Shown: piece by piece, positions 3,033 through 15,830 of the stretch | Position numbering within the stretch: position 1 is the first letter of the stretch | Layout of the letters: each line of letters begins with the position of its first letter | Source: a virus | DNA length: 64,000 nucleotides | Direction: 5' to 3' (one strand) | IMG/VR virus record: IMGVR_UViG_3300049002_000006 | Span: 1 to 64,000 of that record | Translations under genes and position numbers: made by a program | The notes under the pieces: generated by a model | Database searches by the model: none | What the model saw: the letters and a program-made list of their open reading frames with translations, nothing else | Told to the model about the DNA's origin: nothing

Positions 3033-3042
3033 AGCGCCCTCG

Positions 3043-3092: not shown

Positions 3093-3181
3093 CGCCCCGG
3101 GCAAGATCGGCCCGCAAACGCCGTTTAATCGTGACTGGCGGGGCATTGTTCTCAGCCCCGCTAATTCAGGCCAGCTTTGTG

Positions 3182-3448: not shown

Positions 3449-3451
3449 AGG

Positions 3452-3703
3452 TCATTCTTTCGTAAAGATGTCAGGGCGACAGTCTTCGGCGAATAGTTGA
3501 TCGAAGCAGGGCGAGCAGTAGCCGGAGATCAGGAGTTCTCGTTGTTCGGTTGTCAGATAGGGCATCGCCTTCTGGATGAGCATACCGTTTTGCCACTTGA
3601 CGTGGTCGATACTGCCCACTTTGAAAGGCGGTTGTTCTTCGCGGCACTTCGGGCAGCAGATGGTCAGAGTTAGTGGAACGCCGTTCATGGCTACTTGCCC
3701 CAC
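3452..3703 (-). CDS. zinc-ribbon protein
   Basis: CPKC...IQKAMPYLTxEQRELLISGYCSPC. Confidence 0.7.
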   Translation of the reverse strand: MGQVAMNGVPLTLTICCPKCREEQPPFKVGSIDHVKWQNGMLIQKAMPYLTTEQRELLISGYCSPCFDQLFAEDCRPDIFTKE

Positions 3704-4065
3704 ATTTCTAGGTCTCGGATTCGTTCGTCATGTTCGGCCCGGTCGAGTCGCGGCGTCTCTTCGAGGTCTCGTTCTTGGATGTCTTCCGGAGTATGGTCGG
3801 CGTAGTAGGCTTCGAGATCTTCGTCTGACATGCAGTCGAGGGTCTCTTTGTTCCGGATCGCCTCGTTGGCCCGGTCGTAGCTATTCGTGCCGTCATCGGT
3901 CGGACTGACATGGAGCCGGTCGATCAGCGCCTCGATAGCGGAAGCCTCGGGGTAGCCTTCGGCCGAGTGTAGATCGAAGACTTTGTGGAGTGCTTGAAGT
4001 ACGCTCTGTCGGTCTTCGTCAGTCAGAGTCGTGAGGAATAAATCGATTAATCGTTCGGCGGTCAT
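3691..4065 (-). CDS. acidic hypothetical early protein
   Basis: ATG 4065 with SD AAAGGGG, downstream of promoter. Confidence 0.65.
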   Translation of the reverse strand: MTAERLIDLFLTTLTDEDRQSVLQALHKVFDLHSAEGYPEASAIEALIDRLHVSPTDDGTNSYDRANEAIRNKETLDCMSDEDLEAYYADHTPEDIQERDLEETPRLDRAEHDERIRDLEMWGK

Positions 4066-4153
4066 CGTCAGGCCCCTTTCGAGTCTAGATCGGCCCCACG
4101 CCTCGCCAGAGAACAGCCCGGCAAGAGGCGTGAGAATTCGCCGATATCGAGAT

Positions 4154-4182
4154 ACTGTACTGTCGGCGGGCCGGCCTCGCAA
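4154..4182 (-). promoter_or_regulatory. early promoter TTGCGA-17-TACAGT
   Basis: Near-consensus hexamers, correct spacing. Confidence 0.55.
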
Positions 4183-4283
4183 CGTTATTCGCGCCTTTTT
4201 GTCGATGTTTTTTGGCCGCTTCCAGGAGCCCGTCCACTGATAATTACTGTTTCACTCGTTAGTATGATATGGCTTATACCTAC

Positions 4284-4311
4284 TTGACACGCCCACATCC
4301 TCTGTTATAAC
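4284..4311 (+). promoter_or_regulatory. promoter TTGACA-16-TATAAC for terminase genes
   Basis: Near-consensus sigma70, SD AGGAGG follows. Confidence 0.7.
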
Positions 4312-4340
4312 ATGCCCCCGCCCACTAAAAGGAGGAGGCA

Positions 4341-5138
4341 GTGTCGAAGACGAGAACCATAAAAGTCGCAGTCGTGTGGCAGGACGAGTTCTACCTGCGG
4401 GCCTATCAGTTAGCCCGCAGTGGGATGGGGAAAATGCAAATCGCCCGGGCGATCGGAGTCAGCTGGCCGACGTTCAAGAAGTGGCTGGACAGGAAGGAAG
4501 CTCTCAGGACCGCTATCAAGGACGGATCAGATCCCATCCACGAGGGCAAGCCGCAGCCCTTCCAAGACTACGTTTACGGCAACATGGACCCACACACGAA
4601 AGCAGTGTACGATAAGGTCCGGTCGTACATCGACCCGCAGACGGCTCCTAGGAATGCGGTAGTGATGCTGGAAGAGTTGATGCGGGACCAGGGCGACAAG
4701 ATGCGAAAGTCCTTATTTCTGCACTTCTACGCCAGTCACGGATTCAATCCGTCTGCCGCCTGCCACGCGGTTAATATCAAGAAGAAGACCCTAGAAAGGT
4801 GGTGCATCACCGATCAGGAGTTTTACGAGATGATGGAGGAGATGCGGTGGCATATGAAGAACTTCTGCCGGGGCCGGGCGATGGACTTGGTGGCCGCCGG
4901 GGACGCAAGTATGACCAAGTTCATGCTGAGTAATCTGGATGAGGACTTCAGGAAGACGCCGAGTACGACCAACATCAACATTCAAGGCCGGATCGAACAC
5001 GAGCATAACCTGGTGGATGTGGATAAGATTCCACTCAAGATCAGGATGCAGATGATGGACGCAATCGAGAACGAGCGAGACGGGGACGAAGACGAGATTC
5101 TGGACGCCGAATACGAGGTAAAGGCAGATGGAAATTAG
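4341..5138 (+). CDS. terS: terminase small subunit (HTH)
   Basis: N-terminal HTH (QIARAIGVSWPTFKKW), second HTH, GDASMTKFML, position before terL. Confidence 0.7.
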   Translation: MSKTRTIKVAVVWQDEFYLRAYQLARSGMGKMQIARAIGVSWPTFKKWLDRKEALRTAIKDGSDPIHEGKPQPFQDYVYGNMDPHTKAVYDKVRSYIDPQTAPRNAVVMLEELMRDQGDKMRKSLFLHFYASHGFNPSAACHAVNIKKKTLERWCITDQEFYEMMEEMRWHMKNFCRGRAMDLVAAGDASMTKFMLSNLDEDFRKTPSTTNINIQGRIEHEHNLVDVDKIPLKIRMQMMDAIENERDGDEDEILDAEYEVKADGN

Positions 5139-5168
5139 AGTGGTAGTAATCTACGAGGAGGGCGAGTC

Positions 5169-5459
5169 ATGAGTTTGGTGCGAATCGAAGCTGAATGGTT
5201 TAGAAAGGCGTTAGAGAAATCACAAGAACGGATGAAGGTACTTATAGCTCAGGAACTAAAGAAAGCAGGACTTAAGCTGATGGCTGAAGCAAAGGTGACG
5301 TACAACGAGGCTCAGCTACCTGGATCAGACTGGGTGGAGTTAGAAGGACAGTTGCCGATGACAGACGAAGGTAGAAAAATCTTGGAGGAGTGGTTAGACG
5401 AAACGTTGTCGAGCAGGAAGCAAGCCGACGAGCCGGTCATCGTGAAGGAGAAGGAATGA
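5169..5459 (+). CDS. hypothetical protein
   Basis: ORF between terS and terL, ATGA coupled. Confidence 0.55.
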   Translation: MSLVRIEAEWFRKALEKSQERMKVLIAQELKKAGLKLMAEAKVTYNEAQLPGSDWVELEGQLPMTDEGRKILEEWLDETLSSRKQADEPVIVKEKE

Positions 5460-6976
5460 ATAAGAAGATGGCCGTGGACCGGATTAAACTGATCCGTAGC
5501 ACCACGATGGAGAGCTACTCCCAATTCGTCAAATACTTCTGGCCGTGCGTCTCGGAGGAGAAACTGTGCTGGAACTGGCACATGGAGTATATGTGCAACG
5601 AGACGCAGAGAATCTACGAACGGGTGTTCAAAGGCTTGCCTAAGGAGTACGACGAGGTCACCAATATCAGTCCTGGGACTAGTAAGAGCACCGTAAAGAG
5701 TGTCATGCCCTGCGCGTGGGCATGGACTAGGATGCCCCACTTCAAGATGATCGGGGCATCCTACGCGGAAGAAGTAGCCATCGACCTGAGTATGAAGTGC
5801 CGAGGACTGGTCACACACGACCGCTTCCGAGAAATCTTTCCGGAAATCGTCTTACGAGACGATATGAACAGTAAAGGAAAGTTCGGTAATACGAAAGGTG
5901 GGTGGCGGCTGGCCGCAGGCGTCAAAGGCCGGATTATGGGTCATCATGCTCATGTGATAGTTGTGGACGACCCGCTTAGTCCAGAACAAGGTGAGTCTGA
6001 GTTAGACACGGCTACGGCCAATAGATGGATTAGTAAAACTCTTTCGACCAGAAAGATCGACAAGGCTGTCACACCAATGATCCTTGTGATGCAGAGGATT
6101 CACCATAACGACCCGACTGCTCTATTCCTCAAAAAGAAACGAGTCCGTCATACCTGCATCCCGGCCGAGATAATGGATGGCAAGATTATGGTTCATCCGG
6201 ACCACCTGCGAAAGCACTACGTAGATGGATTGATGGACCCGGTCCGGCTGAGTCGAGAAGTTTTGGATGATTACAAGGCCGAAGGAGACCGCTTCTATAG
6301 CACCCAATTCTTGCAAATGCCGGCCCCCGACGGCGGCGAGATGTTCAAGGTCGATCGGCTCATCAAGCTGACCGAGTACCCGAAGAAGTTCGACAAGCTC
6401 GTCAGGTTCTGGGACAAGGCCGGGACTAAAGGCGGCGGGGCGTACACGGTCGGAACACTCATGGGCATGGTCGAGGACAAACAAACCAGGAGTGCCCGAT
6501 ATTTTGTCCTCGACGTGGTCCGGCGGCAAGTCGATAGTTATTTCCGGGAGAAGTTGATTGAGGACACGGCCCACAGCGACGGCAGGAGTGTAATCGTCGG
6601 CGTCGAGCAGGAGCCGGGCTCAGGCGGGCTGGAGTCGGCACAGAATACGGTCGGCAGACTAGGTCCGCAACGGTTTGTGGTCAAAGTGAGTAAAGTGGAT
6701 GTGTCAACAGGCGGGAAGATCCAACGAGCCGACCCGTTCAGTTCTCAGGTAAACGGTGGGACAGTATACTACCTGCCCGATAAACCCTGGAACGATGCGT
6801 GGCTGGAAGAACTAGAGCATTTTCCGCACAGTCGTACCAAGGACCAGGTAGATAGTGCGTCCGGGGCTTTCGCCCTGTTGGCCAAGAAGAGGCGGCAGGT
6901 CGGCGGTGTCAGGATGAACAGGTCAAGGGTGTCGAGTTTCGCGGCCCGGGTAGTGCCTCAGTACGCCCCCGCGTAA
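5456..6976 (+). CDS. terL: terminase large subunit
   Basis: WNWH, Walker A-like SPGTSKS, Walker B VIVVDDP, MQR, nuclease RFWDKA...EQEPGSGG...DQVD. Confidence 0.95.
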   Translation: MNKKMAVDRIKLIRSTTMESYSQFVKYFWPCVSEEKLCWNWHMEYMCNETQRIYERVFKGLPKEYDEVTNISPGTSKSTVKSVMPCAWAWTRMPHFKMIGASYAEEVAIDLSMKCRGLVTHDRFREIFPEIVLRDDMNSKGKFGNTKGGWRLAAGVKGRIMGHHAHVIVVDDPLSPEQGESELDTATANRWISKTLSTRKIDKAVTPMILVMQRIHHNDPTALFLKKKRVRHTCIPAEIMDGKIMVHPDHLRKHYVDGLMDPVRLSREVLDDYKAEGDRFYSTQFLQMPAPDGGEMFKVDRLIKLTEYPKKFDKLVRFWDKAGTKGGGAYTVGTLMGMVEDKQTRSARYFVLDVVRRQVDSYFREKLIEDTAHSDGRSVIVGVEQEPGSGGLESAQNTVGRLGPQRFVVKVSKVDVSTGGKIQRADPFSSQVNGGTVYYLPDKPWNDAWLEELEHFPHSRTKDQVDSASGAFALLAKKRRQVGGVRMNRSRVSSFAARVVPQYAPA

Positions 6977-6990
6977 TTCGCCTTTTTCTC

Positions 6991-7019
6991 TTGCATGCCC
7001 CATATCATGCCGATAAGCT
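6991..7019 (+). promoter_or_regulatory. early promoter TTGCAT-17-TAAGCT
   Basis: Spacing and position before 7093 gene, in GGW-free window. Confidence 0.55.
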
Positions 7020-7092
7020 ATCTCTATGTCGTTGTCGGCCGACTGCCTCATCACTTCGGGGCGGGCCGACAACGAAAAAGAAGGGGCCGAAC

Positions 7093-7299
7093 ATGCAAGC
7101 GCAAGCGCCGAAGTGTCAGAAGTGCGGGGCGAATCTGATATATGTGACCGACTTCGCGGCCCCAGGCTGTGGTCAAGCCTGGCGGTGCTCCGATCAGTCG
7201 TGTGCCCGGCCGCACGTCAAGATCGGCTCGACTGTCATCGACCTGTCCGAGCATGAAGATCCGACCGAATACGAGTACGACATGGCCGACGTGATGTGA
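7093..7299 (+). CDS. small zinc-ribbon protein with own promoter and terminator
   Basis: CQKC...CSDQSC; SD AAGGGG. Confidence 0.65.
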   Translation: MQAQAPKCQKCGANLIYVTDFAAPGCGQAWRCSDQSCARPHVKIGSTVIDLSEHEDPTEYEYDMADVM

Positions 7300-7307
7300 T
7301 CCTCATT

Positions 7308-7333
7308 GCCCCGTCCGAAAGGCGGGGCTTTTT
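7308..7333 (+). terminator. intrinsic terminator
   Basis: GCCCCGTCC GAAA GGCGGGGC TTTTT. Confidence 0.8.
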
Positions 7334-7531
7334 AACCTACTCTCATAATGGTTTAGACCATGAGTCAAAGGAAACTGGAAAAGCGCAGGGCGAAAGAAAT
7401 AGAGAAACAAAGACAGGACACGCTCGCGTACCGGCGGGCCAAGCTGCAAAAGTGTTCTACAGCCCTACGGCTGGAGGATATCGCCGGAGAGCGAGTTTAC
7501 GAACGAGGAAACACAGGTCACGACTATCCGC

Positions 7532-7834
7532 GTGCATCAGGATTGGGCGAATAAAGGACTAGCGATCTATCAACAACGTGGACTAGAACTAGGTTTGTTG
7601 AAATGGACTAAAACAACGAATATCTCGACCAGGAAAATGGAAAAGATATTAATAATGGGGGGAGATGGATTGGATATAACTGTTCTCGAAAAGTTAGGGG
7701 AGTTGGCAAACAGTATAAGGAAGGAAGTATTTATGCCCCACGAAATGGTCTATGACTTGTTGACGGACAACGGTTTCGAGGCTGGTGTATCCAGACAGTA
7801 TAAGGAAGTGGTTATATTCGATGTGGTCTTATAG
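7532..7834 (+). CDS. hypothetical protein (DLLTDNGF motif)
   Basis: Motif shared with downstream ORF. Confidence 0.55.
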   Translation: MHQDWANKGLAIYQQRGLELGLLKWTKTTNISTRKMEKILIMGGDGLDITVLEKLGELANSIRKEVFMPHEMVYDLLTDNGFEAGVSRQYKEVVIFDVVL

Positions 7835-7845
7835 GAGCCGGAATA

Positions 7846-8232
7846 ATGAAACTAACTAAAGACCAGTTGAAAATATTCCGATTAAACAAGGCTAGACTGA
7901 AAGGTCTCGTCGCTCAGTATGGTTGGGTAATCAGGCAAGGGGCCGTAGGAATTAAGAAAAACGGAACACGAACCGTCATTATCGAGGTGGACTGGGAAAA
8001 CATCGCCCAAGAACTGTATGAAAACGAAATAGATAGATATAGTGATTACTTCAGTAATAGTCATGTTCTGGTCAGTCAAGCGCGGCAAAAGACAATGAAC
8101 GAATTGTACATGAGGTCACCGATCATGTCGGACTTTTTAACGGATAACGGATTTGAACACCAAGTACAAAAGAAGTCCGAATATATAGATGATAACCATC
8201 AACCAATATCCGTGGAAGTACCGCACGAATAG
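7846..8232 (+). CDS. hypothetical protein (IMSDFLTDNGF motif)
   Basis: SD AGGAG; paralog motif. Confidence 0.65.
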   Translation: MKLTKDQLKIFRLNKARLKGLVAQYGWVIRQGAVGIKKNGTRTVIIEVDWENIAQELYENEIDRYSDYFSNSHVLVSQARQKTMNELYMRSPIMSDFLTDNGFEHQVQKKSEYIDDNHQPISVEVPHE

Positions 8233-8258
8233 GACTCAAGGACTTAGGAAGAAACCAA

Positions 8259-8615
8259 ATGAAAAAGAACTTCGGATGCCTGGACTGCAAAAGCGACAGA
8301 TTCGCAATGGTCATACTGAAGGAAGAGGTTTGGCTATCAATAGCTGACAAGCACGATTTCCTTTGTCCTGTTTGTATAGAAGTCCGTCTTAAAAGGAAGC
8401 TTACCTGGAATGACTTAAAAGGGTGTGTAGTTAACCTGGACGCTTTAATGGGGATTCACTACTTAATCACTTCCAGTCCACAAGAAATCCTTACTATGTT
8501 CCAGGAATATCAAGCTCTGATGAGTTTGGAAGCCCCTCTCCTCTCGCAAAAGTCAGAAGGATTAAAGGAAAAGCCTCGAAACGCCTCGAAACGCAAAGAA
8601 ATCAACAAAAAGTGA
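8259..8615 (+). CDS. zinc-finger phage protein
   Basis: CLDC...EVWLSI...LCPVCIEVRLKRKLTWND. Confidence 0.7.
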   Translation: MKKNFGCLDCKSDRFAMVILKEEVWLSIADKHDFLCPVCIEVRLKRKLTWNDLKGCVVNLDALMGIHYLITSSPQEILTMFQEYQALMSLEAPLLSQKSEGLKEKPRNASKRKEINKK

Positions 8616-9514
8616 AAAGGAGGAGGTTTCGCCGAATTAGTAGAATAGAACACTAAATATGTTCTCCAGATGTATACTCAATATTAACAATTAGTGGTAT
8701 AACATATCAAAAACGCCGTACCCAAGTCCAACCACTAATTATTTACAGGTAACGGTAGCACAATTCCAGAGACAGGCTACCTCATTACCAATTAATTCAG
8801 CCGGCTCACTCACTTCTGGCCCAAAACAAGTCTTCAAATCCCCTGGACAATCGTTATTAACCGCCCTTTTCCTGCGATATCTCCTGGCCAGAGCACAATC
8901 TCACGCCCTAGGCATAATAACTCAGGAAACCATCGGTTAATGCATTTCCTTTCAAATACCCCTCAGGTTCAATCAAGGACGCACACTTTCCTGCTAACAG
9001 AAGGTCAATAGGACTAATGGTTGAGTGGATGTGTTACCAATAGACCAATCACACACTCCTTCCAGGTAGCTCCTGTGATATGACTGGAAGAGATTCTTAG
9101 GTCGGGCTAGAGAGTCCAGCTACCAGTCTGCGTTCACGGTTAACAGGATATACGGTTTAGGAATTCGAGGCCGATAGGTAGCATTTGGAAGAGGTTAAGG
9201 TGCCAACGGACCAGGAGGGTTCAGCGCTGGTCGAGGTAATAAGGACTTACGGTCGAGCACTTCTTGGAGGTATTTCCATAGGTCTAACCAGGTGGGTTCA
9301 ACCGAGGTTAGACCTATTCGGACTACAGGTAGTATAGGTTTAAGTAGATTAGGACTAGCGGTTTTACCGGTGGTTAAGGGTTCAACAGACCCGGAGGGTT
9401 CATTTGGTCAACAGGTAATAGGTTAACGGTCGCGGTTGATCGGACTAAAGGACTAGCGGTTTCGATAGGTTTGGAGGTTGGTCAAGGGGTTTAAGTGGTT
9501 CAGGAGGAGGTGGA
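8616..9514. other. non-coding region with polar GGW-dense tracts
   Basis: No credible ORF. WCC-rich at about 8700-9060, about 52 GGW on + at 9061-9514, repeated AGGACTA/GGTT words. Confidence 0.75.
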
Positions 9515-9566
9515 AGCAGAAAAGCGCAAAAAAGAGAAGGGCGAGAAATCGCCGTGAGTGTGAACG

Positions 9567-9597
9567 AAAAGAGCCCCGGGCGAAGTGCCCGGGGCTC
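9567..9597 (-). terminator. intrinsic terminator of island gene
   Basis: GAGCCCCGGGC ACTTC GCCCGGGGCTC TTTT on minus strand. Confidence 0.9.
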
Positions 9598-9611
9598 ACG
9601 ATATCGAGATG

Positions 9612-10142
9612 CTACGCCGTCGCCACTTCGGGCACTTTCTTGCCCTTCGCCTTGCCCTTCGGGGCTTCGGCGGCCGGCTTCGTTTCGCTCTCGGCCGCGA
9701 TTAGTTGAGAGACGATTTGCACAATCGGCCCCGCCAGTGAGTAGCCGATGGCCGTTTTGCTCACGCGGCCGTTTCGCGTCATCGTGCCGTTGTGCGGGCC
9801 AGTCGGGCGATTCGGGCCGTACTCGACACTGCCGATGCTTGCGGCCATGTCACGATCACGCACGCCAGTCAGCTTGTCGGCCGCTTCGCCGTTCGCCAGC
9901 TGAGCGCACAAAGCGCTCAGCCACACTTTGAACATGGCGTGTGTGCCAGTGCCCGCCCGCGTGCCGTAGCTGGCGAGTAGCGTGCCCTGATCGCATAGGG
10001 CGTCGTACACGCGGCGGGCCGGCGTGTTCTCGGCGGGCAGGGCGATCATAGTGCCCGGCTGACTGCTACGCCCCGGCCGCACGGGCAGGGCCGCGAGGGC
10101 AGTAGCCAGCATCTCATTCGTCGTCGTGTTCAGCTTCGTCAT
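9612..10142 (-). CDS. isolated immediate-early-like protein (176 aa) in GGW-free island
   Basis: ATG 10142, SD ACAGGGG, own promoter and terminator; Lys/Ala-rich tail. Confidence 0.8.
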   Translation of the reverse strand: MTKLNTTTNEMLATALAALPVRPGRSSQPGTMIALPAENTPARRVYDALCDQGTLLASYGTRAGTGTHAMFKVWLSALCAQLANGEAADKLTGVRDRDMAASIGSVEYGPNRPTGPHNGTMTRNGRVSKTAIGYSLAGPIVQIVSQLIAAESETKPAAEAPKGKAKGKKVPEVATA

Positions 10143-10256
10143 GTCATAGCCCCTGTCTTGTAAGTACGTCATTGTCTGCATTGTGTCGCTCGCCCGCACA
10201 CGCACGTTGCGCGGCAGACGCGAGCCGAGATGTCAGAGAGCGTACTAGACAGAGTG

Positions 10257-10285
10257 ATTAAAGGGGCCGACTAGTCTGTTGTCAA
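10257..10285 (-). promoter_or_regulatory. strong promoter TTGACA-17-TTTAAT
   Basis: Consensus -35, 5/6 -10, 17-nt spacer. Confidence 0.85.
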
Positions 10286-10307
10286 CGATATCGAGTGATT
10301 TTATCAT
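10279..10307 (+). promoter_or_regulatory. overlapping divergent promoter TTGTCA-17-TATCAT
   Basis: Both hexamers 5/6; overlaps the -35 of the leftward promoter. Confidence 0.5.
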
Positions 10308-10485
10308 CACTATTTCGAGCAATTGTTCACTAGCAGTGGTAGCGAATGTCGTGCCATACCCTCATGGTTCAATAGGACTAACGTGATTACTGCCGACAGG
10401 GGGTAATAGAGGAGGATTGGAGGACTCCCCTACTTCGTGGATGAATCTGGAGGAGGGGCATTGGCAGTGAATGGGCAACCCATCC

Positions 10486-10591
10486 CTATCGATTTTTTTA
10501 TTTTTTACCCGGTATCGATTTCTAAATTTTCGCCCGGTATTTTTTAACTACGGTTTTTATCTCCTGGTATCGATTTTTTATTTTTTTAGGT
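10486..10591. repeat. T-tract repeats (GGTATCGATTTTTTA)
   Basis: TATCGATTT at about 10488, 10513 and 10568, plus CCCGGTAT x2. Confidence 0.8.
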
Positions 10592-10606
10592 AATTTTAGA
10601 AATACC

Positions 10607-10635
10607 TTGCCGTCCAGAAAACTATCGAGTATGCT
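10607..10635 (+). promoter_or_regulatory. late-operon promoter TTGCCG-17-TATGCT with 9-bp inverted repeat over -10
   Basis: Spacing; CGAGTATGC..GCATACTCG. Confidence 0.55.
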
Positions 10636-10697
10636 ACCCGCATACTCGCAGGAAACTCATCAGACCAAATTACCTGAATTCGCCCTAGGAGAACACC

Positions 10698-11102
10698 ATG
10701 AGTGGTAAGCTGCCTGACCTGGCAAACCCCTACAAAACGCGGGCGTTCGACTACGTCGGCACGACCATCGGGGCGGAAGCCACGAACGTTATCACCGTGG
10801 CCTGCCAGCTGCAAACGAGCGACCGGCGGGACATCGCCGAGCGGGCCATGATCGAATGGTTCATCAGTGACGACGCGGCCGGCGACAGCCTGGTAGCCAC
10901 AGCCCCGGACGGCGGCGTGGCCGCCGGGGCGGACGGTTGGCTCAGCCAACTCGTTACCGGAAAACTCGGGGTCGCCGTGTGCGAGGCCGACGGGGATTTG
11001 GACATCGCCATCACCCACGCGGCCGGGGCGAAGACCGTTTACCTGGGGTTCCGGATGCCGGACGGGACTATCCGGATGTCGGCCGCTATCACCTTCGCCT
11101 AA
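10698..11102 (+). CDS. putative virion structural protein
   Basis: A/G/T/D-rich beta composition, SD AGGAG. Confidence 0.6.
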   Translation: MSGKLPDLANPYKTRAFDYVGTTIGAEATNVITVACQLQTSDRRDIAERAMIEWFISDDAAGDSLVATAPDGGVAAGADGWLSQLVTGKLGVAVCEADGDLDIAITHAAGAKTVYLGFRMPDGTIRMSAAITFA

Positions 11103-11115
11103 CGGAGCAACTTCC

Positions 11116-11487
11116 GTGCCGCAGGACCACAGAGGACTCGTATTGGGTCCTGGTTCGGTAAGAGACGAGATTCTGGAAGAAAACCGAAAGCGATTTGAGG
11201 GCGAACTCCTCAAGGCAATGAAGAAAAGGTCTGTCATGCACTACCGGAACGGACGGGAAGCGAAAAACGGGGACAAGATCGTGTCCCTCGGTAGGAGCTT
11301 CCTCATCGAAGCAGTAGGAGTTTTGTTCGACGCGACTTCGGAAGGAGGTAACCACTGCAACGGGCAGATCGCCCCGGTCAGAGGAGGTCCGGTGTCTCAC
11401 GCCTGCCTCTGTGACTGCCTACACGTGGAAGACCTGTACGCGATTCTGAAAGAGAAGGGCCTCCACAAGCGTCCGGACGGAAAGTAA
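11116..11487 (+). CDS. hypothetical protein (probable start 11236, MHYRNGREAKNGD)
   Basis: Small conserved-looking protein. Confidence 0.55.
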   Translation: MPQDHRGLVLGPGSVRDEILEENRKRFEGELLKAMKKRSVMHYRNGREAKNGDKIVSLGRSFLIEAVGVLFDATSEGGNHCNGQIAPVRGGPVSHACLCDCLHVEDLYAILKEKGLHKRPDGK

Positions 11488-11503
11488 TAAAGGAGCAACT
11501 TCG

Positions 11504-11686
11504 ATGTGGGCCGTCGTGTTCGTCGTCCTGATGATTCTGATCCCAGTGCTGTACTTCGTCCTGAGGGAACCGCCTGGTCGGAACGTGATGGTAGCGGTCA
11601 TCCTGCTATGGGTGTGCGTGGCGATCCTCGGACTATACATGTTCGGGGGGTTTTGGGAACCTAGGGCGGCAGTCCTGGTAAGGTGA
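11504..11686 (+). CDS. small 2-TM membrane protein
   Basis: Two hydrophobic stretches, SD AGGAG. Confidence 0.6.
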   Translation: MWAVVFVVLMILIPVLYFVLREPPGRNVMVAVILLWVCVAILGLYMFGGFWEPRAAVLVR

Positions 11687-11687
11687 T

Positions 11688-12059
11688 ATGACAACCAACG
11701 ACCTGATTTACGGTGAAGACAGTTTACCAGTCCTGGTCTTCACCGGGTACACGGAGTTTCTGGTAGGGGGCAAAGACAGGTCGTCTCAGTGGACTAAGGT
11801 TCGGGACGAATACATCAAGGCCAACCCGGACTGCGAATGCTGCACTAGGAAGGCCGAAACCGTTCACCACAAAAGACCGTATCACCTGTTTCCGGATCTC
11901 GAGCTCGACAAGTCGAACCTGATGAGCGTTTGCGACCACTGCCACCTGGTGTTACTACACGCCGGTGACTTTAGGTTGTGGATGGACATGCCCGATCTGG
12001 AAGCCGCCCGGCACCGGAACATCGTCAAACTCGCCAAGAAAAGGTCGGTGAAACTATGA
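11688..12059 (+). CDS. HNH endonuclease
   Basis: CECC..VHHKRP..NLMSVCDHCH. Confidence 0.85.
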   Translation: MTTNDLIYGEDSLPVLVFTGYTEFLVGGKDRSSQWTKVRDEYIKANPDCECCTRKAETVHHKRPYHLFPDLELDKSNLMSVCDHCHLVLLHAGDFRLWMDMPDLEAARHRNIVKLAKKRSVKL

Positions 12060-12409
12060 GTGACAGTCCGTACATGGACCGCGACAAGACCAGAGAGCAG
12101 TTCGACTCATATGGAGTCTACGCCTCGGAAGAGTTTCAGGCGTTCTGCGAACGGTTCGGAATCGCCTGGGGACTACATACCAAGTCCATTACGATCACGT
12201 TGCCGGCCGAAGGCATCATGACTGTCGTCCAGGAATACCATACGACGGTGAAGAAGGACGATCCGTTGTCGAATGCCGCCAGGACGAAAGTAGGCAAAGG
12301 AGCCGGACCGCGACCGGCCGACGACCCGGTGAAGGTGATTGACACGACTACTGCCCACAACAAGGAGTACAGGACGGCAATCCCTTCGGCCAGGAAGGAT
12401 TTGGACTAA
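12056..12409 (+). CDS. hypothetical protein
   Basis: ATGA coupled. Confidence 0.6.
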   Translation: MSDSPYMDRDKTREQFDSYGVYASEEFQAFCERFGIAWGLHTKSITITLPAEGIMTVVQEYHTTVKKDDPLSNAARTKVGKGAGPRPADDPVKVIDTTTAHNKEYRTAIPSARKDLD

Positions 12410-12756
12410 TGCCCAATCTGACTACCCAAACGGCCGTCATCGCCAGCGGGGTGTCCATCTCCGGGGTCATCGAAACCGGCCAGCTGACGCCGTGTGCCAT
12501 CCAACTCCCGTCGGCTTGGACGACTGCCGGGATCACGTTCGCCGTCAGTCTCGACGGGGCGACCTACGGGCCGCTCAAGAACCAGGCGGGCACGGAAGTT
12601 CTCGTCACGGCCCCGGATGCGGATGACGTAATCAATCTCGACCCGAAAGACTTCGGGGCCGTCCGGTACTTCAAGATCAGGTCGGGGACGGAAGGCTCGC
12701 CCGTGAACCAGGGTGCCGCCCGGTCGATCATCGTCTGTTCTCGGTTCGTGCCTTAA
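12409..12756 (+). CDS. putative virion structural protein
   Basis: IQLPSAWTTAGITFAVSLDG..YFKIRSGT small beta protein. Confidence 0.65.
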   Translation: MPNLTTQTAVIASGVSISGVIETGQLTPCAIQLPSAWTTAGITFAVSLDGATYGPLKNQAGTEVLVTAPDADDVINLDPKDFGAVRYFKIRSGTEGSPVNQGAARSIIVCSRFVP

Positions 12757-12777
12757 CCGGAAAGGAGAAGTGACCAA

Positions 12778-13191
12778 CTGGCCAGCTACAATAAACATAA
12801 CAACTGGGCGGAGGATATGGTCGAGGTTGCCAACATGGGCACCGACCAATTCGTCCTGGCCCTGACGGCGGCGGCGAACGCCCCGGTGGCGACCAACGCC
12901 ATCCTGGCGAATCTGACCCAAGTCAGCTACACGAACTTGTCGTCCCGTAACCTGACGACGAGTAGTAGTTCCCAGACGACCGGGACTTACACCCTTGTTA
13001 TCAACGACCTGGTGTTGACGGCCTCGGGCGGGGCCGTGGCGACTTTCCGGTACGTGGACATGTACGACGACACCCCGACCAGTCCGGCCGATCCTCTGGT
13101 CGCGTGGTGGGACTACGGCGGGAACGTGACACTGGCCGACACCGAGACCTTCACGTTCGACTGCGGGGCCAACGTTATCAGTCTATCCTAA
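12778..13191 (+). CDS. virion structural protein, probable CTG start
   Basis: SD AAAGGAG 10 nt before CTG GCC AGC TAC AAT AAA; fibre-associated composition. Confidence 0.65.
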   Translation: MASYNKHNNWAEDMVEVANMGTDQFVLALTAAANAPVATNAILANLTQVSYTNLSSRNLTTSSSSQTTGTYTLVINDLVLTASGGAVATFRYVDMYDDTPTSPADPLVAWWDYGGNVTLADTETFTFDCGANVISLS

Positions 13192-13209
13192 GGAAAGGAA
13201 CGACTCGCA

Positions 13210-13617
13210 ATGTCCAAACAACCGAACACTCTGACAGACCTTCAGTTCGACCTGCTCCGGCAGGTTCCAGAGGGATATAAGGACGTAAACCCGACTGGCG
13301 TCTACGTCATGAAAGACCCACGACTTCCGCAATTCGAGTTCCACTGGCACCCCGGCGTCCAAAAAGTGTATTGCCTCTACCTGCGGGGGTACTACAAAGA
13401 AGGGACGTGGGTCAAGTCGGGCAATCAGCGCGACTGCACGGGCGAGAAGATCGCCGAACACGTCGCCACGCACGCCATAGCGTTTTCCTTCGTGCAAACG
13501 TTCTGCCGCGGCTACATACTCGCCCTGAGTCAGAAAGCCCGGGAAACGACGAATTACGGCGGGCTCGTGCCCGAACGCATTCTCCTCTACTCACCGTTAC
13601 CAACGGAGGGCAAATAG
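13210..13617 (+). CDS. hypothetical protein
   Basis: ORF with SD. Confidence 0.6.
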   Translation: MSKQPNTLTDLQFDLLRQVPEGYKDVNPTGVYVMKDPRLPQFEFHWHPGVQKVYCLYLRGYYKEGTWVKSGNQRDCTGEKIAEHVATHAIAFSFVQTFCRGYILALSQKARETTNYGGLVPERILLYSPLPTEGK

Positions 13618-13618
13618 C

Positions 13619-13915
13619 ATGACGACCAAAGCAGCCGAAAAAGAAAAGACGCCTCCGGCCAAGAAGCAAGAGTCGGAAATCGTCCAGATGGCAAAAAAAA
13701 GGCGGGCGGAGTTGGTCAAGGAAAAGGCGGAGTTGGTCAAGAAGATGCAGCCCCACCGCGACTACTTGGACAAGGTCGCGGCCGACCAGAAGCTGAACGA
13801 GGCCAGGAAGAAGGTTAAGGAGTACAACGTCCTGATCGGACCCATCGACCAGGCCCTGGCGGACTGTGCCCGGCTGATCGGCACAGTTTCCATGTCCCAG
13901 TCGGAAGGTAAGTGA
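13619..13915 (+). CDS. basic coiled-coil protein
   Basis: ORF with SD. Confidence 0.6.
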   Translation: MTTKAAEKEKTPPAKKQESEIVQMAKKRRAELVKEKAELVKKMQPHRDYLDKVAADQKLNEARKKVKEYNVLIGPIDQALADCARLIGTVSMSQSEGK

Positions 13916-13967
13916 CTGATGGTCTATTATGTCTCGAAACAACTCCTAAACCAATTAGCGTGACTTT

Positions 13968-15206
13968 GTGGCTTGCGTATTCCGGGCACAATCGGCGGTC
14001 GTCGGTGCCGGGTCTACGAACCCGAACCCTGGGGAACCTAGCGGGACGGCGGTCGGGGACTACCTCCTCGCCCTCGCCACCATCGACAACACGGCGACGA
14101 CTTGGACCGCCCCGGCCGGGTGGACGACGTTCTCCTCGGGGACACTTGCCGGCCTGAACAACTTCAAGTGGATCATGAGCGGGATTGCCCGGGGCGGGTC
14201 GGCTGTGGCGACGGCGTGGACTCAAAATGCCGTGTCCCTGTTCTGGGAAGTTCACATCCTGTCCCTCCGCAGTAACGCCGGACTGAGTATTGCCCTGGAT
14301 GCTCAGTCCGCGGCAGGTGGGACGTGGGCTAGCGGAGTTCATTCCATTGACCCGCCTGCCGCTGTGGCAATAGCCCCGGCCTCTCTCGCGGTTTGCATGG
14401 CCGTGAACTGGAACGGGACGGTATCCGGGACCTGGACCGCCCCGGCCGGGTACACCATGCGGACCCGGAACACGAGCGGGGACGACACGGTCGGGGCCAG
14501 CAAGACCCTGTCGGCGGCCGGGTCGGAAGACCCCGGCACGTTCTCCGGGACGACTAACGTGACGGTCGGCGGGTGGGACGGGATGACGTTTATTTTGACC
14601 GAAGTCAAAGCCCCACTGCTGCCCCGTCGCCCCCGCCGCTGGTTCCGGACGGCGGGGGGGAGTTCTGGCCCCGCTGACGACCGGTTTATTACTTCCGACT
14701 GGAGTTTTTTAATGAGTCGGATCTATATGTGCCCACTGACCGGGACGATCACCAACGCCGGCGGTAACACCGACTTACTGGAAGTTTTGCCCGGGGACGA
14801 CAAGCCGGTCCGCATTCGGGGTATCTTACTCAGTCAGATAAGTGAGGTCGGGGACGCGGCCGAAGAAGGACTCCAGATCAGTGTCCAACGGTTCGCCGCC
14901 ACGGTCACGTCCGGATCAGGCGGGACGGCCGACGCCGCTGCGAACCGCGTCCCGATTGACAGTGCCGACTCGGCCGGCGGGATGACGGTCGAATTTAACA
15001 ACACGACCGTCGCCACCACGTCCGGTACGGCGAGCCCGATGGGCTATCTAGGTTGGAACGAACGGAACAGCCCTTACGATTTCTGGTTTCCGGACGAGCG
15101 ATTCTGTCCGATCATCAAACAGGGCGAGGGCGGATTCGTCCGGCAGGACACGACGGCCGCCGACGACTACACCGGGTGCTTTACCTTCTGGATCGAGGAG
15201 TTGTAA
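13968..15206 (+). CDS. two-domain virion structural protein (internal start 14712)
   Basis: WTAPAGW/WTAPAGY repeats; internal GGAG+ATG. Confidence 0.7.
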   Translation: MACVFRAQSAVVGAGSTNPNPGEPSGTAVGDYLLALATIDNTATTWTAPAGWTTFSSGTLAGLNNFKWIMSGIARGGSAVATAWTQNAVSLFWEVHILSLRSNAGLSIALDAQSAAGGTWASGVHSIDPPAAVAIAPASLAVCMAVNWNGTVSGTWTAPAGYTMRTRNTSGDDTVGASKTLSAAGSEDPGTFSGTTNVTVGGWDGMTFILTEVKAPLLPRRPRRWFRTAGGSSGPADDRFITSDWSFLMSRIYMCPLTGTITNAGGNTDLLEVLPGDDKPVRIRGILLSQISEVGDAAEEGLQISVQRFAATVTSGSGGTADAAANRVPIDSADSAGGMTVEFNNTTVATTSGTASPMGYLGWNERNSPYDFWFPDERFCPIIKQGEGGFVRQDTTAADDYTGCFTFWIEEL

Positions 15207-15487
15207 TGGCGACAATCAAGGTCGGGGGCCGCGTCAAGACGGCGGAGGGGGAAGGAATGGTCGTCACCGTCCACGATGCCAACACACTGTATCCAGGAAA
15301 GCCGTTGCACAAGAAGCAGGACACGAAGCCGGACCGTCGAGACACACACTACCTGCCGGGGGATAAAGTCTATCAGGTCGAATTAGACGACCAACCGATG
15401 CGACCTGGTCCGGCCGGGAAAATGGTCCGGACCAGGAAGGCTCCCACCTATAGTAATTTCCATGAGTCGCAGGTGGAACCGTGTTAG
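15206..15487 (+). CDS. SH3/KOW-like hypothetical protein
   Basis: IKVGGRVKTAEGEGMVV; TAATG coupling. Confidence 0.55.
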   Translation: MATIKVGGRVKTAEGEGMVVTVHDANTLYPGKPLHKKQDTKPDRRDTHYLPGDKVYQVELDDQPMRPGPAGKMVRTRKAPTYSNFHESQVEPC

Positions 15488-15822
15488 AACTTCCAGATTT
15501 GGTGCAGTGTCCGAAGGTGACTCTATCTAAAAACCTGGACTGCGTAATCGGCCGTCGAGGTGCGCTAGTTACGGCCCGGATCGGGAATGCCGACCTGAAG
15601 CCGATGGACTACGCGGAAGCCATCCGGACCGGGCAGTATCTCATCAACCAGGGCGGGGCGGCGATGCGGGCAGGTGAAATTGTGAGTCGTTTGACCTTCA
15701 GTCACCATCATCTCGAATGCCATCCGAAAGTCCTGCTCAAGATCGGACAGTGGATCATGGCGAAGGGAAGTGAGGCGAAACTGATGACTGGTGACACGCT
15801 CAAGCGCGTGTACGTGGGCTAG
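15481..15822 (+). CDS. hypothetical protein
   Basis: ORF in operon. Confidence 0.6.
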   Translation: MLELPDLVQCPKVTLSKNLDCVIGRRGALVTARIGNADLKPMDYAEAIRTGQYLINQGGAAMRAGEIVSRLTFSHHHLECHPKVLLKIGQWIMAKGSEAKLMTGDTLKRVYVG

Positions 15823-15830
15823 GAGGGATC

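Follow-up and report, generated by a model that had tools for sequence, protein, structure and literature searches.

GGW-free transcription unit in the genome of an uncultured soil phage that encodes a DpdA-like transglycosylase

The trinucleotides GGA and GGT (GGW; WCC on the complementary strand) occur 5941 times in the 82,146-bp genome of an uncultured soil phage, with a mean spacing of 13.8 bp, and 4709 times in the window, the whole 64,000-nucleotide stretch analysed here. Why, then, is a single short gene together with its control signals entirely free of this word, and what could read it? The contig ends overlap by 127 bp, which indicates a circular assembly. A second assembler produced an 82,002-bp contig from the same run with no difference across positions 8600-11000; being built from the same underlying data, this contig backs only the join. 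The locus lies within a 14.5-kb stretch between terL and the portal gene that is missing from four relatives, and a blastn search at distant settings with positions 9000-11000 gave no match among 50,697 phage records. Searches with TerL, portal, DpdA and the NusG-like ORF found no close relative, the DpdA query returning only fragments of 1.2 and 2.7 kb. Among sequencing runs, the stretch occurs only in the probable source run, and aligning contigs of three runs at 80% likeness yielded the source contig and otherwise only unrelated pieces of 35-50 nt. A tRNA search of the phage found none.

The region in question is delimited as follows.

9515-10337, unstranded: island free of GGW and WCC, 823 bp, GC content 0.61

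As the preliminary description had reported, with exact coordinates, GGA, GGT, TCC and ACC are all absent between the last GGA, with its first letter at 9512, and the GGT that follows at 10338, leaving a gap of 826 bp. GGW-free windows of similar length were not seen elsewhere, the second-largest gap being 215 bp. A uniform model predicts 51 sites in the island, close to the earlier estimate of about 50, and local composition predicts 59.9. At genome frequency, 33.9 GGA/TCC and 25.5 ACC/GGT are expected against none found, while GGC/GCC reaches 73 against 39 expected. The plus strand of the island holds 52 GGS and 56 SCC with no GGW or WCC; all 108 consecutive GG/CC steps thus have only G or C (S) flanks, a run with a genome-wide E of 1.2e-27. 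Normalised to mean spacing, the GGW gap (59.7-fold) is the largest of 168 strand-symmetric 3-mer sets, and the runner-up among independent sets, AAW, reaches 30-fold. K-mer counts against codon-shuffled controls had been proposed beforehand, and their outcome agrees. The ORF inside the island has GGW at 0 of 43 positions on the message strand and 0 of 41 on the template strand, whereas resampling its codons from genome usage gave a mean of 34.5 sites and a minimum of 21 (n = 5000). Shuffling of its own synonymous codons gave a mean of 13.7 and a minimum of 5, and none of 5000 shuffles was free of sites. Glycine is encoded by GGC (15 codons) and GGG (2 codons), and ACC and TCC are unused, compared with 30% of Thr and 21% of Ser codons in 18 large ORFs. 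The ban on GGW is real, exact and far beyond chance, and acts both at codon choice and at codon junctions. Because it is strand-symmetric and extends into untranscribed DNA on each side, about 52 bp upstream of the -35 element and about 50 bp past the terminator, we infer that the word is read on DNA.

Inspection of the island revealed one complete transcription unit on the minus strand, in agreement with the preliminary description, which had the margins just enclosing promoter, leader, a 176-aa ORF and terminator.

10295-10312, minus strand: 18-bp quasi-palindrome TAGTGATGATAAAATCAC just upstream of -35, candidate operator
10286-10295, plus strand: CGATATCGAG element abutting -35
10257-10285, minus strand: promoter-like site, -35 TTGACA (10285-10280), 17-nt spacer, -10 TTTAAT (10262-10257)
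10143-10256, minus strand: leader of about 105 nt, Shine-Dalgarno AGGGG (10154-10150), spaced 7 nt from the ATG at 10142
9612-10142, minus strand: 176-aa ORF, stop included (MTKLN...PEVATA)
9561-9597, minus strand: intrinsic terminator, stem 9597-9571 with 11 pairs (10 G-C), 5-nt loop, T tail TTTTCGTTCA

The promoter-like site matches 11 of 12 positions of the sigma70 consensus, which may not be that of the host. It had been called a consensus promoter; the TTGACA-17 arrangement is indeed present, but the -10 hexamer TTTAAT is not consensus, as it lacks the conserved A at position 2, and for this reason the site was not listed by our consensus scan. The terminator, a G+C-rich hairpin with a T tail after the stop codon, and the AGGGG Shine-Dalgarno sequence are both as first described. 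Rfam contains no family for this locus, the only match being a chance-level one on the terminator hairpin (E 0.37). Shine-Dalgarno sequences of AGGGG/GGGG type without GGAG were found at 3 of 70 ORF starts examined, and we count the AGGGG of the island, as a forced choice, in favour of a GGW ban. The only other copy of TAGTGATGATAAAATCAC in the window, at 866-883 on the plus strand, lies in another GGW-free promoter window (two matches against 0.01 expected). In addition, three of the four exact copies of CGATATCGAG in the window lie in GGW-free DNA; one of the further copies, at 9599-9608, immediately precedes the terminator on the mRNA, and a second, at 4142-4151, falls in another GGW-free window. 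The sharing of these 18-bp and 10-bp elements between the island and other GGW-free windows indicates that the island is native to this genome.

The 176-aa protein matches no curated family: searches against Pfam, PHROGs, NCBIfam, PDB sequences and the ESM Atlas gave nothing, and no relative was found in viral, metagenome and genome contigs or in five whole relatives. A marginal match in one relative, G005 (25 residues, E 0.028), was disregarded. Two homologues, P0003 (189 aa, on a contig of 2,367 bp) and P0004 (176 aa, on a contig of 1,186 bp), were found in Logan, at 67% and 38% identity, indicating that the ORF is a real gene. The homologous-protein search returned the query itself and P0003, and the protein-representative search returned three entries, the query itself, P0004 and P0005, the last of which was rejected as a low-complexity match to a protein with a 7-fold PTGTNNGT repeat. 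An AF2 model of the protein (pLDDT 65, pTM 0.60) suggests a possible winged-helix core at about residues 52-150. A Foldseek search of pdb returned no structure at E <= 0.001; its top match was the winged helix of MUS81 (E 0.58). With VIA-align the best Z was 5.8 and most rows were winged-helix domains (ORC/Cdc6, Fur/PerR), all below the Z 8 caution line; histone H5 was matched with a Z of 4.7 and an rmsd of 2.5 over 63 aligned residues. The C-terminal tail is rich in Lys, Ala and Pro (...KPAAEAPKGKAKGKKVPEVATA), and both homologues have analogous tails. Linker-histone-like winged-helix proteins likewise carry a basic tail, whereas the winged-helix fold itself is weak here and model-based. This small, basic and possibly winged-helix protein would most probably regulate or coat DNA and be produced very early. 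Its homologues may be under the same ban. Under a total GGW ban, Met followed by Asp, Glu or Val and Trp followed by most residues cannot be encoded, and P0003 and P0004 contain no such GGW-forcing dipeptide in 15 Met and 2 Trp contexts (joint P about 0.005 if independent). This proxy is suggestive only, since homology keeps several of these contexts the same, and GGW-forcing dipeptides are also absent from 6 of the 127 180-aa windows taken from reference proteins.

The DNA on either side of the island carries the word again.

9061-9514, plus strand: left flank, polar and non-coding, with the highest GGW density in the genome
10338-10595, unstranded: right flank, where GGW returns, GC content 0.42

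The left flank (454 bp) has 52 GGW on the plus strand against 11 WCC, with only 9 GGS and 3 SCC, and contains the repeated words (T/A)AGGACTA(GCGGTTT) and GGTTCAA. Helical periodicity of this tract at 10-10.5 bp was not found; the best period was 8 bp (P 0.03, uncorrected, 13 periods). The right flank has 16 GGW and 6 WCC on the plus strand and three TATCGATTTTTT-type repeats at 10487-10588.

Extending the search for GG/CC steps with only G or C flanks to the whole genome placed the island at the far end of a pattern that recurs across it. Eight runs have a genome-wide E below 0.05, five of them in GC-rich windows that head operons. Six of 40 intergenic regions are nearly GGW-free while the remainder match expectation, and about 30 of the 40 are not depleted. 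Besides the island, the following windows were recorded.

771-982, unstranded: promoter window without GGW, ahead of the NusG-like ORF 1-828 (minus strand); 37 consecutive GG/CC steps, E 2e-7
3027-3198, unstranded: promoter window without GGW; 28 consecutive steps, E 7e-5
4063-4220, unstranded: promoter window without GGW, ahead of ORF 3691-4182 (minus strand); 24 consecutive steps, E 9e-4
6952-7146, unstranded: window without GGW where ORF 6991-7299 (plus strand) begins; 27 consecutive steps, E 1e-4

A scan of positions 1-8500 for the sigma70 consensus found no excess of promoters (5 against 5.3 expected) and none in the GGW-free windows. A TTGCCC-17-TTTAAT arrangement between 768 and 983 was noticed by eye only. 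Only 4 of 105 ORFs are GGW-depleted, each being the first behind a GGW-free window. In three of them the depletion is confined to the message strand, with GGW at 3/53, 2/29 (ORF 3691-4182) and 2/20 (ORF 6991-7299), and the template strand has a normal density (37/67, 20/38 and 6/23). The island ORF is the only one of the 105 purged on both strands. RNA polymerase evidently requires no clean template to read these three promoter-proximal ORFs, and transcription alone fails to explain the purge of the template strand in the island.

Which feature of this phage could give meaning to a three-letter DNA word? The genome encodes a candidate writer of modified guanine.

61749-62690, minus strand: DpdA-like DNA transglycosylase gene, candidate writer, PHROG 887 'queuine tRNA-ribosyltransferase', E 2.7e-39
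62692-63870, minus strand: GT4-like glycosyltransferase candidate adjoining dpdA, Glyco_transf_4, E 1.1e-4

By tblastn, the DpdA-like product shares 33% identity with the DpdA of Pseudomonas phage iggy and the TGT of Escherichia phage CAjan, and it has no match in Pfam or NCBIfam. FolE is found by Pfam at 2.8e-65 and is 46-47% identical to the FolE of iggy and CAjan, and QueE and QueD share 46% and 35% identity with their CAjan counterparts. Also present is a DpdL-like QueD paralogue containing LRNWHRHIF. QueC (preQ0 synthase; PF06508) was not found in the 82-kb genome, with a control positive in 14 of 14 genomes. DpdA-like, QueD-like and glycosyltransferase genes had all been assigned at the outset; the first two are confirmed, but the glycosyltransferase is weak, its score of 22.7 bits lying under the Pfam cut-off of 28.5. 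In the scheme of PMC10516641, which treats the DpdA subfamilies and DpdL, absence of QueC together with a DpdL-like protein predicts CDG or plain 7-deazaguanine, and the base in this phage could be the plain one. The consequences for transcription would differ. According to the accessible text of PMC4838386, bulkier 7-substituted 7-deazaguanines almost abolished in vitro transcription by the RNA polymerases of E. coli and B. subtilis, without prominent shortened transcripts, an effect ascribed to a guanine contact at -35, and templates with plain 7-deazaguanine were transcribed efficiently. A strong effect of the latter would therefore need a further step, e.g. by the putative GT4-like enzyme.

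Phage DpdA enzymes are specific for short motifs: GA for CAjan and also GGC (PMC7544227), and GA, determined experimentally, for iggy (PMC10484667), in so far as the accessible parts of these papers describe them. The system studied here has the same genes in the same order as CAjan and iggy (PolA, clamp, DpdA-like, FolE, QueD, QueE), and a short G-containing word is again the unit that matters. It differs in its putative motif GGW, in the missing QueC and in the GT4-like gene beside dpdA. GGW was not found as a DpdA motif in the accessible text on CAjan, iggy and the DpdA subfamilies. In intergenic DNA of iggy, GA/TC is the most depleted of 10 dinucleotide sets (O/E 0.60, against 0.81 in coding DNA), and it is likewise the lowest in CAjan (0.84). 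However, neither phage has a long motif-free transcription unit, the largest GA/TC-free gaps being 171 bp in iggy and 81 bp in CAjan, so that the principle is not general in its strong form. A comparable island was found in none of six comparator phages. The same island in relatives without modification genes had been named as evidence against a modification code; the DpdA-less relatives G001 and G004 have no GGW-free window, with largest gaps of 113 and 77 bp. The DpdA-positive distant relatives G003 and G005 show no comparable ban of any two- or three-letter word. A PolA search retrieved 79 loci at 35-53% identity, and the 53 of at least 10 kb were scanned for banned 2-3-mers; the top gaps belonged to AT-type words in GC-rich or repetitive DNA, and GGW was never in the top three of a locus. 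Full-text literature searches found no description of motif-free islands in deazaguanine phages, and the main texts of the CAjan and iggy papers, whose supplements may contain relevant per-site modification maps, do not mention motif-free zones, promoters or early genes.

Taken together, we propose that GGW is the guanine-modification motif of this phage and that the island is a modification-free transcription unit, an explanation to which we give an even chance of being correct. A DpdA-type transglycosylase would swap guanine for a 7-deazaguanine derivative at GGW, so that the genome would carry a mark about every 14 bp and the island would stay ordinary DNA. Selection would maintain the island as a unit purged on both strands over promoter, leader, gene and terminator. 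A marked guanine in promoter DNA would disturb the binding of sigma or of a regulator, and one in the non-template strand would hinder unassisted RNA polymerase, which would account for the message-strand-only purge of the three promoter-proximal genes. The template strand of the island is clean as well, perhaps because its gene has to remain undamaged and transcribable in the face of anything that targets the mark, such as modification-dependent host nucleases, glycosylases or mark-binding proteins. The idea of a DNA-modification code in the preliminary description is borne out in part: the writer genes, the both-strand ban and the other promoter windows favour it, but a clean template is evidently not needed elsewhere. 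The undepleted majority of intergenic regions, the lack of a promoter excess in the sigma70 scan and the DpdA-positive relatives without such a ban speak against the proposal.

Alternatively, GGW might be read on DNA by an agent that has nothing to do with deazaguanine, such as a silencer, nuclease or defence sensor, the GGW-free windows being free of its sites. We regard this as a less probable explanation, but it has the most to be said for it among the alternatives. A strand-symmetric ban that takes in untranscribed DNA would be expected from such a reader, and the island abuts the densest polar tract, in which 52 GGW in 454 bp with GGC nearly absent resemble a binding array. A nucleoid-like silencer could nucleate on GGW-dense tracts, and the basic protein of the island, with its weak winged-helix-like matches and Lys-rich tail, could itself be the reader. 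The lack of such islands in cultured deazaguanine phages would also be understood if modification were irrelevant. However, a degenerate 3-nt word every 14 bp offers little specificity for binding, helical periodicity is absent from the dense tract, and the analysis yielded no nuclease or reader as a candidate. That three ORFs are purged on the message strand only calls for a strand-aware reader, which double-strand binders are not, and the co-occurrence with the DpdA cluster would be a coincidence.

The preferred reading, a unit kept free of modification, shares all its support with the complete model of the preliminary description, in which bulky modification at GGW lets host polymerase read only the island gene first and the product acts as a master switch. 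In this full form the model appears rather improbable. It would explain why the island ORF alone is clean on both strands and has its own promoter-like site and terminator; the possible DNA-binding fold of the model structure and the 18-bp element common to the promoters of the island and the NusG-like gene are also in line with it. On the other hand, the genome has four or more further GGW-free promoter windows, and the normal template-strand GGW of their first genes implies that polymerase is not restricted to the island. Bulkiness is putative, given the GT4-like score, the missing QueC and the DpdL-like paralogue, and the proposed switch is a protein without a family and with a model of middling confidence.

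Selection at the RNA level might instead remove GGA and GGU from early transcripts, for instance because these would be cut by a GG-specific endoribonuclease or contain internal words resembling a Shine-Dalgarno sequence; transcription of the island in both directions would then account for its purge on both strands. The message-strand bias of the three promoter-proximal ORFs and the change of Shine-Dalgarno sequences from GGAG to GGGG would fit, but we consider this quite improbable. The purge of the island covers untranscribed DNA upstream of the promoter and after the terminator, and in the promoter windows both strands lack the word. A search of the left edge gave no antisense promoter, the plus-strand ORF in the island gives Arg/Ser/Pro/Cys-rich nonsense, and the plus strand immediately before the island is richer in GGW than any other DNA of the genome, whereas an antisense transcript would have to be poor in it.

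That the island carries no biological signal, being a product of chance, composition, an imported foreign gene or a chimeric assembly, might be suspected from its GC content (0.61), which is higher than in the flanks (0.42-0.49), and from its place in a stretch missing from relatives, but this reading is refuted for practical purposes by the run statistic (E about 1e-27) and the own-codon shuffles, by high-GC codon usage, which should promote ACC, TCC and GGT-free but ACC-rich coding instead of their total absence, by the agreement of the second assembly as far as the join is concerned, and by the regulatory words and other windows under the same ban elsewhere in the genome. Avoidance of CRISPR PAMs, phosphorothioate motifs and Rho (PMC13323073, accessible text) was also considered and does not fit a both-strand ban confined to one gene, and an invertible cassette was dropped because inversion leaves the message strand unchanged.

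Known phage systems offer partial parallels to an island spared from modification. The transcription factors Alc of T4 (acting on cytosine DNA) and TF1 of SPO1 (hydroxymethyluracil DNA) discriminate templates by modification. There, as proposed here, the chemical state of phage DNA governs RNA polymerase or its partners; however, every C or T is replaced in those phages, which separates self from host, whereas here the compartments would be patterned and strand-polar within one genome. In T5, the first-step-transfer or pre-early region is set by the mechanics of injection. It resembles the island in being a short set of genes under its own control that is to work ahead of the remaining genome, and differs in being defined by injection and not by a banned word. 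In Autographiviridae, restriction-modification motifs are absent from the first-injected (leading) region, according to the accessible text of PMC12455610. As in this phage (0 in 823 bp against 5941 in the genome), a word is excluded from one small region and tolerated elsewhere, and its location counts instead of its genome-wide number; the region excluded there is described in that text as carrying early and anti-defence functions. Their word, in the same account, is a Type I site and the agent is host restriction of unmethylated DNA, whereas here the word is degenerate, 3 nt long and present every 14 bp, and the suspected agent is the phage's own modification. A word of this kind is shorter than any restriction-modification site known to us.

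A broader view, which we hold to be unlikely at present, would extend the modification-free unit to a cis-regulatory layer written in modified guanine, in which the placement and strand of GGW give four kinds of sequence distinct meanings. GGW-free windows would be binding places for host RNA polymerase and regulators on incoming DNA; genes without GGW in the non-template strand could be traversed by unassisted polymerase; GGW-dense polar tracts would serve as insulators; and a fully clean 'boot' cassette would code for a small DNA-binding protein and remain undamaged and open to expression no matter what attacked or covered the marked DNA. It would fall to the NusG-like factor to license polymerase for all other, marked parts of the genome. 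Should GGW prove to be the modification motif, the genome would map where the phage cannot afford modified guanine, namely at specific promoters, in the non-template strand of the first genes and over one whole gene. Protective DNA modification would thereby become a positional regulatory signal, banned words at early promoters would allow the motifs of uncharacterised DpdA enzymes to be predicted computationally, and the orphan protein would deserve first attention as a possible immediate-early regulator or anti-defence factor. Otherwise, some agent must be recognising individual occurrences of a three-letter DNA word, and this would be no less interesting.

Between the last GGA (start 9512) and the next GGT (start 10338), direct counts revealed no GGA, GGT, TCC or ACC, so the preliminary description was right about the coordinates of the island (9515-10337) and the total absence of GGW/WCC in it (W, A or T; S, G or C). 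The window makes up the first 64 kb of one 82,146-bp contig, whose GC content is 0.55 and which carries 5941 such sites, one per 13.8 bp; the second-ranked GGW-free gap in it is only 215 bp. The two ends of the contig share 127 bp (window 1-127 = genome 82020-82146), so the assembly is circular, with a length of about 82,019 bp; the IMG/VR-style 'direct terminal repeats' of the record are this assembly overlap. The island is neither G- nor C-poor (GC 0.61), with 52 GGS and 56 SCC steps on the plus strand. GGC/GCC steps, already noted as abundant, number 73 vs 39 at the genome rate, nearly double, and AGG/CCT and CCA/TGG are down to about half as an arithmetic by-product of the ban on W after GG. 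All other di- and trinucleotides occur in it, so that the ban concerns precisely 5'-GGW-3', whichever strand carries it.

The gap is 59.7 times the mean spacing, the highest value among 168 strand-symmetric trinucleotide sets, the best unrelated set being AAW at 30 times. With each GG/CC step taken as one trial and a genome-wide probability of W of 0.48, the island contains 108 consecutive steps whose flanks are all S, for which 1.2e-27 occurrences are expected in the whole genome. From the base composition of the gap itself, 59.9 sites are predicted; the next unrelated gap in the genome scores 18.5. With the protein sequence unchanged, codons resampled among synonyms at the frequencies of 18 large ORFs gave 34.5 ± 4.3 sites (minimum 21 in 5000). 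Permuting the ORF's own codons among synonymous positions gave 13.7 ± 2.5 (minimum 5), with zero reached in 0 of 5000 trials. Therefore, the ban works on codon choice and on codon junctions. Glycine is encoded by 15 GGC and 2 GGG, and ACC and TCC, which make up 30% of the Thr and 21% of the Ser codons in the large ORFs, are absent.

Features of the island:
10312-10295 (-), 18-bp quasi-palindrome TAGTGATGATAAAATCAC; the only other copy in the window is at 866-883 (+)
10295-10286 (minus-strand order), CGATATCGAG word; also at 9608-9599, just before the terminator, and in the 4063-4220 window
10285-10280 (-), -35 hexamer TTGACA, 17-nt spacer to the -10 hexamer
10262-10257 (-), -10 hexamer TTTAAT, without the conserved A
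Upstream of the ATG at 10142 (-), leader of about 105 nt with the SD AGGGG at its end
10142 (ATG) to 9612 (-), 176-codon ORF
9597-9561 (-), terminator hairpin of 11 bp, 10 of them G-C, with a T tail

The leader, SD, ORF, terminator and -35 hexamer agree with the preliminary description, but the promoter is not fully consensus: the -10 hexamer lacks its conserved A, and a consensus promoter scan omits the site for this reason. On the upstream side of the -35 hexamer, GGW-free DNA continues for about 52 bp, and beyond the hairpin for about 50 bp. Given the rarity of GGGG-type SDs without GGAG (3 of 70 ORF starts examined; GGAG, GAGG or AGGA in 43), the island SD looks like a forced substitution. 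The 18-bp quasi-palindrome TAGTGATGATWAAATCAC is found solely in two GGW-free promoter windows, at 866-883 (+) and 10295-10312 (-), with 0.01 expected, and is a candidate operator common to the island gene and a NusG-like gene. The word CGATATCGAG has four exact copies (4142-4151, 9599-9608, 10286-10295 and 29108-29117), three in GGW-free DNA; those at 4142 and 9599 lengthen to CGATATCGAGATNCT.

Judged by its homologues, the island ORF is a real gene. One homologue (189 aa, on a 2,367-bp Logan contig) shares 67% identity and the start MTKLN with the island protein, and another (176 aa, on a 1,186-bp Logan contig) shares 38% identity and the same architecture. The third listed match, a repeat protein, was rejected as spurious. 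Searches of Pfam, PHROGs, NCBIfam, PDB sequences and the ESM Atlas gave no match to the protein. Its AlphaFold model is middling (pLDDT 65) and found no significant match with Foldseek. An exhaustive structural aligner gave a best Z of 5.8, under the caution line of the tool; its matches, all below that line, are mostly winged-helix folds over residues 52-150 (ORC/Cdc6, Fur/PerR, Crp, and histone H5 with Z 4.7). From these weak matches and the Lys/Ala/Pro-rich tail, our best guess for the product is a small DNA-binding protein. Under a total ban on GGW, Met cannot precede Asp, Glu or Val, and Trp cannot precede most residues, which served as a proxy for conservation of the ban. None of the 15 Met and 2 Trp contexts in the two homologues is a forbidden dipeptide (joint P about 0.005 assuming independent contexts; 6 of 127 reference windows likewise have none). 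As a sign of conservation this is no more than suggestive, since several of these contexts are shared through homology.

The island is the most extreme case in a pattern of GGW-free DNA found across the genome. The next largest gaps (GC 0.56-0.61, rich in GG/CC) are placed at operon heads, and 4 of 105 ORFs are GGW-depleted (P < 1e-3), each of them coming first after a GGW-free window.

GGW-free gaps and depleted ORFs (counts are for GGW on the strand named):
771-982, GGW-free gap
3027-3198, GGW-free gap
4063-4220, GGW-free gap
6952-7146, GGW-free gap
About 52.6, 64.2, 67.1, 70.6 and 75.2 kb, GGW-free gaps of the replication arm
1-828 (-), extending past the contig junction to genome 81732-82146, NusG-like ORF, the first message-purged ORF; message 3/53, template 37/67
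3691-4182 (-), depleted ORF; message 2/29, template 20/38
6991-7299 (+), depleted ORF; message 2/20, template 6/23
9612-10142 (-), island ORF; message 0/43, template 0/41

Eight runs have a genome-wide E < 0.05, one of which, within an 88%-GC stretch of the tape-measure gene, is probably compositional. The run statistic of the gap 771-982 is inflated by a 37-bp unit (GCAAGAGGCGGGCCGGGCAATTTTTAGCTATT...) repeated about 2.5 times in tandem at 880-975. On the ORF map made in this analysis, 6 of 40 intergenic regions of at least 50 bp are nearly GGW-free and the remainder are at or above expectation; thus the ban is not general to non-coding DNA. Among the 105 ORFs, only the island ORF has its template strand cleaned as well. 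The ORF at 1-828 may encode a phage NusG paralogue, as its NGN-like segment matches Pfam NusG (E 0.0021), NCBIfam nusG (4.3e-6) and LoaP (0.0028), all below cut-off, and its C-terminal part, beyond the circular junction, appears KOW-like by eye.

The left flank is the compositional inverse of the island. Its plus strand (9061-9514) has 52 GGW and 11 WCC and only 12 GGS/SCC, and no other 200-bp bins in the genome are as dense in sites (30 vs a mean of 14.5, s.d. 3.8). This non-coding tract is made of recurring words, and no tRNA, Rfam family or 10-10.5-bp periodicity of GGW was found in it. In addition, 8934-9540 is nearly without GGC/GCC (largest free gap 338 bp, 9202-9540) and CGR (8934-9102). 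To the right of the island, an A/T-rich stretch (10487-10588, GC about 0.22-0.40) contains three TATCGATTTTTT(A)TTTTTT-type repeats, which look like an origin or packaging site. The island lies in the 14.5 kb (6977-21464) between terL (5390-6976) and portal (21465-23126). These two genes are adjacent, with a gap of at most 805 bp, in all four complete relatives found via PolA (G001, G003, G004 and G005), which places the island in a lineage-specific insert. The insert also carries a 1139-aa beta-helix/Big_5/DUF4082 protein (16932-20351). Elsewhere, a 168-aa ORF at genome 79023-79529 (L107 15023-15529, -) has a weak match to Sigma70 region 2 (E 0.0039, below cut-off) and may encode a phage sigma factor for later promoters. 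Two proteins with long low-complexity regions, acidic or basic, at genome 67182-68075 (L107 3182-4075, -) and 68621-69424 (L107 4621-5424, -), have C-terminal segments that are winged-helix-like by eye (...HLSKLVGLGYVKV... and ...HLSALKTKGLIVRG...), and may be further DNA-binding proteins in the style of the island protein.

Six comparators were scanned: the DpdA phages iggy (Pseudomonas) and CAjan (Escherichia), and the four relatives, among which G003 and G005 have DpdA, FolE, QueE and QueD and G001 and G004 are without them. A GGW-free island is absent from all six (largest gaps 77-237 bp; runs of 10-23 steps, E at least 2e-3). The preliminary description would have been contradicted by such an island in relatives without modification genes; G001 and G004 show none, and also lack the island gene. 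A general banned-word scan (a core of one or two bases plus a flank class) found at best low-complexity stretches of up to 270 bp in the comparators (log10 E -14 to -18), vs -26.9 across 728 bp of unique coding sequence in this phage. Nor do iggy and CAjan have a long island free of their own experimentally known motifs. The all-or-none island is thus peculiar to this phage lineage. The GA/TC observed/expected ratio in iggy is 0.60 in intergenic vs 0.81 in coding DNA, the lowest of 10 dinucleotide sets between genes, and in CAjan the intergenic ratio, 0.84, is likewise the lowest of the 10 sets. At the right end of iggy, GA/TC is missing from two stretches of 152 and 95 bp in a divergent-promoter region (60073-60458); no mention of these gaps or of the depletion in iggy was found in the main text of PMC10484667. 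Phages with a known motif thus lend modest support to the idea that regulatory DNA avoids the modification word.

A candidate modification cluster lies on the minus strand at 61.7-67 kb. The DpdA-like and QueD-like genes first reported are there, whereas the glycosyltransferase amounts to a sub-threshold GT4-like match next to dpdA. The DpdA-like protein (PHROG 887, 2.7e-39) is 33% identical to iggy DpdA and CAjan TGT. FolE (2.8e-65), QueE and QueD are also in the cluster, and a QueD paralogue across the window end (genome 63873-64223, -) bears the DpdL signature LRNWHRHIF (PMC10516641). QueC was not found in the genome. The gene order PolA, clamp, DpdA, FolE, QueD, QueE is the same in this phage, iggy and CAjan. 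The DpdL-like protein and the lack of QueC predict a CDG-derived base or plain 7-deazaguanine, which could be the harmless unsubstituted form if neither the GT-like enzyme nor another step adds a decoration.

Phage DpdA is motif-specific, acting at GA and GGC in CAjan (PMC7544227) and at GA in iggy (PMC10484667). In PMC4838386, templates with vinyl-, ethynyl- or phenyl-7-deazaguanine almost completely inhibited E. coli and B. subtilis RNA polymerase and gave no prominent shortened transcripts, which the authors ascribed to a -35 G contacted by sigma region 4.2; unsubstituted 7-deazaguanine templates were transcribed efficiently. Polymerase inhibition by substituted deazaguanine gives promoters a concrete reason to avoid such bases. 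The polymerase core also has a specific pocket holding a non-template-strand G, and NusG-family factors contact the non-template strand. Both would fit a non-template-specific effect.

The strand symmetry, the reach into untranscribed DNA and the sharing by selected promoter windows indicate that the DNA is read one site at a time. We give about an even chance to the prediction that the reader is the phage's own guanine-modification system, the obvious candidate, which fits the published motif specificity and the transcription biochemistry. A GGW-reading protein or nuclease unrelated to modification is clearly less probable. The strict model first proposed, with the island as the only expressible gene and its product as a master switch, is unlikely; it draws on the completeness of the purge, and the GGW-free windows at other operon heads speak against it. 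Selection at the RNA level, suggested by the message-strand bias of the three sister genes, is quite improbable, as the purge also takes in the untranscribed borders of the island. An artefact is practically negligible, as an independent assembler's contig from the same run covers the stretch with 0 differences (backing only the join, since it was built from the same data) and a high-GC foreign source predicts more ACC and TCC, whereas the island has none.

Phages are already known to avoid motifs in their genomes, to insert deazaguanine at specific motifs and to keep RM sites out of the leading region (PMC12455610). The searched literature, supplements aside, contains no description of a DpdA phage in which a complete transcription unit lacks a 3-nt word on both strands and lies beside the densest tract of that word. 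As polymerase evidently tolerates template-strand GGW in the three sister genes, the cleaning of the island's template strand must have some other purpose. If guanine modification is the reader, the best inference is that the cassette would be kept uncut and unbound despite whatever acts at marked sites, for which modification-dependent nucleases, glycosylases or proteins coating marked DNA are candidates. Such a cassette would suit an immediate-early regulator, an anti-defence protein or a DNA-coating protein. On a bolder reading, which we hold to be rather doubtful, the GGW pattern would be a cis-regulatory layer written by modification.
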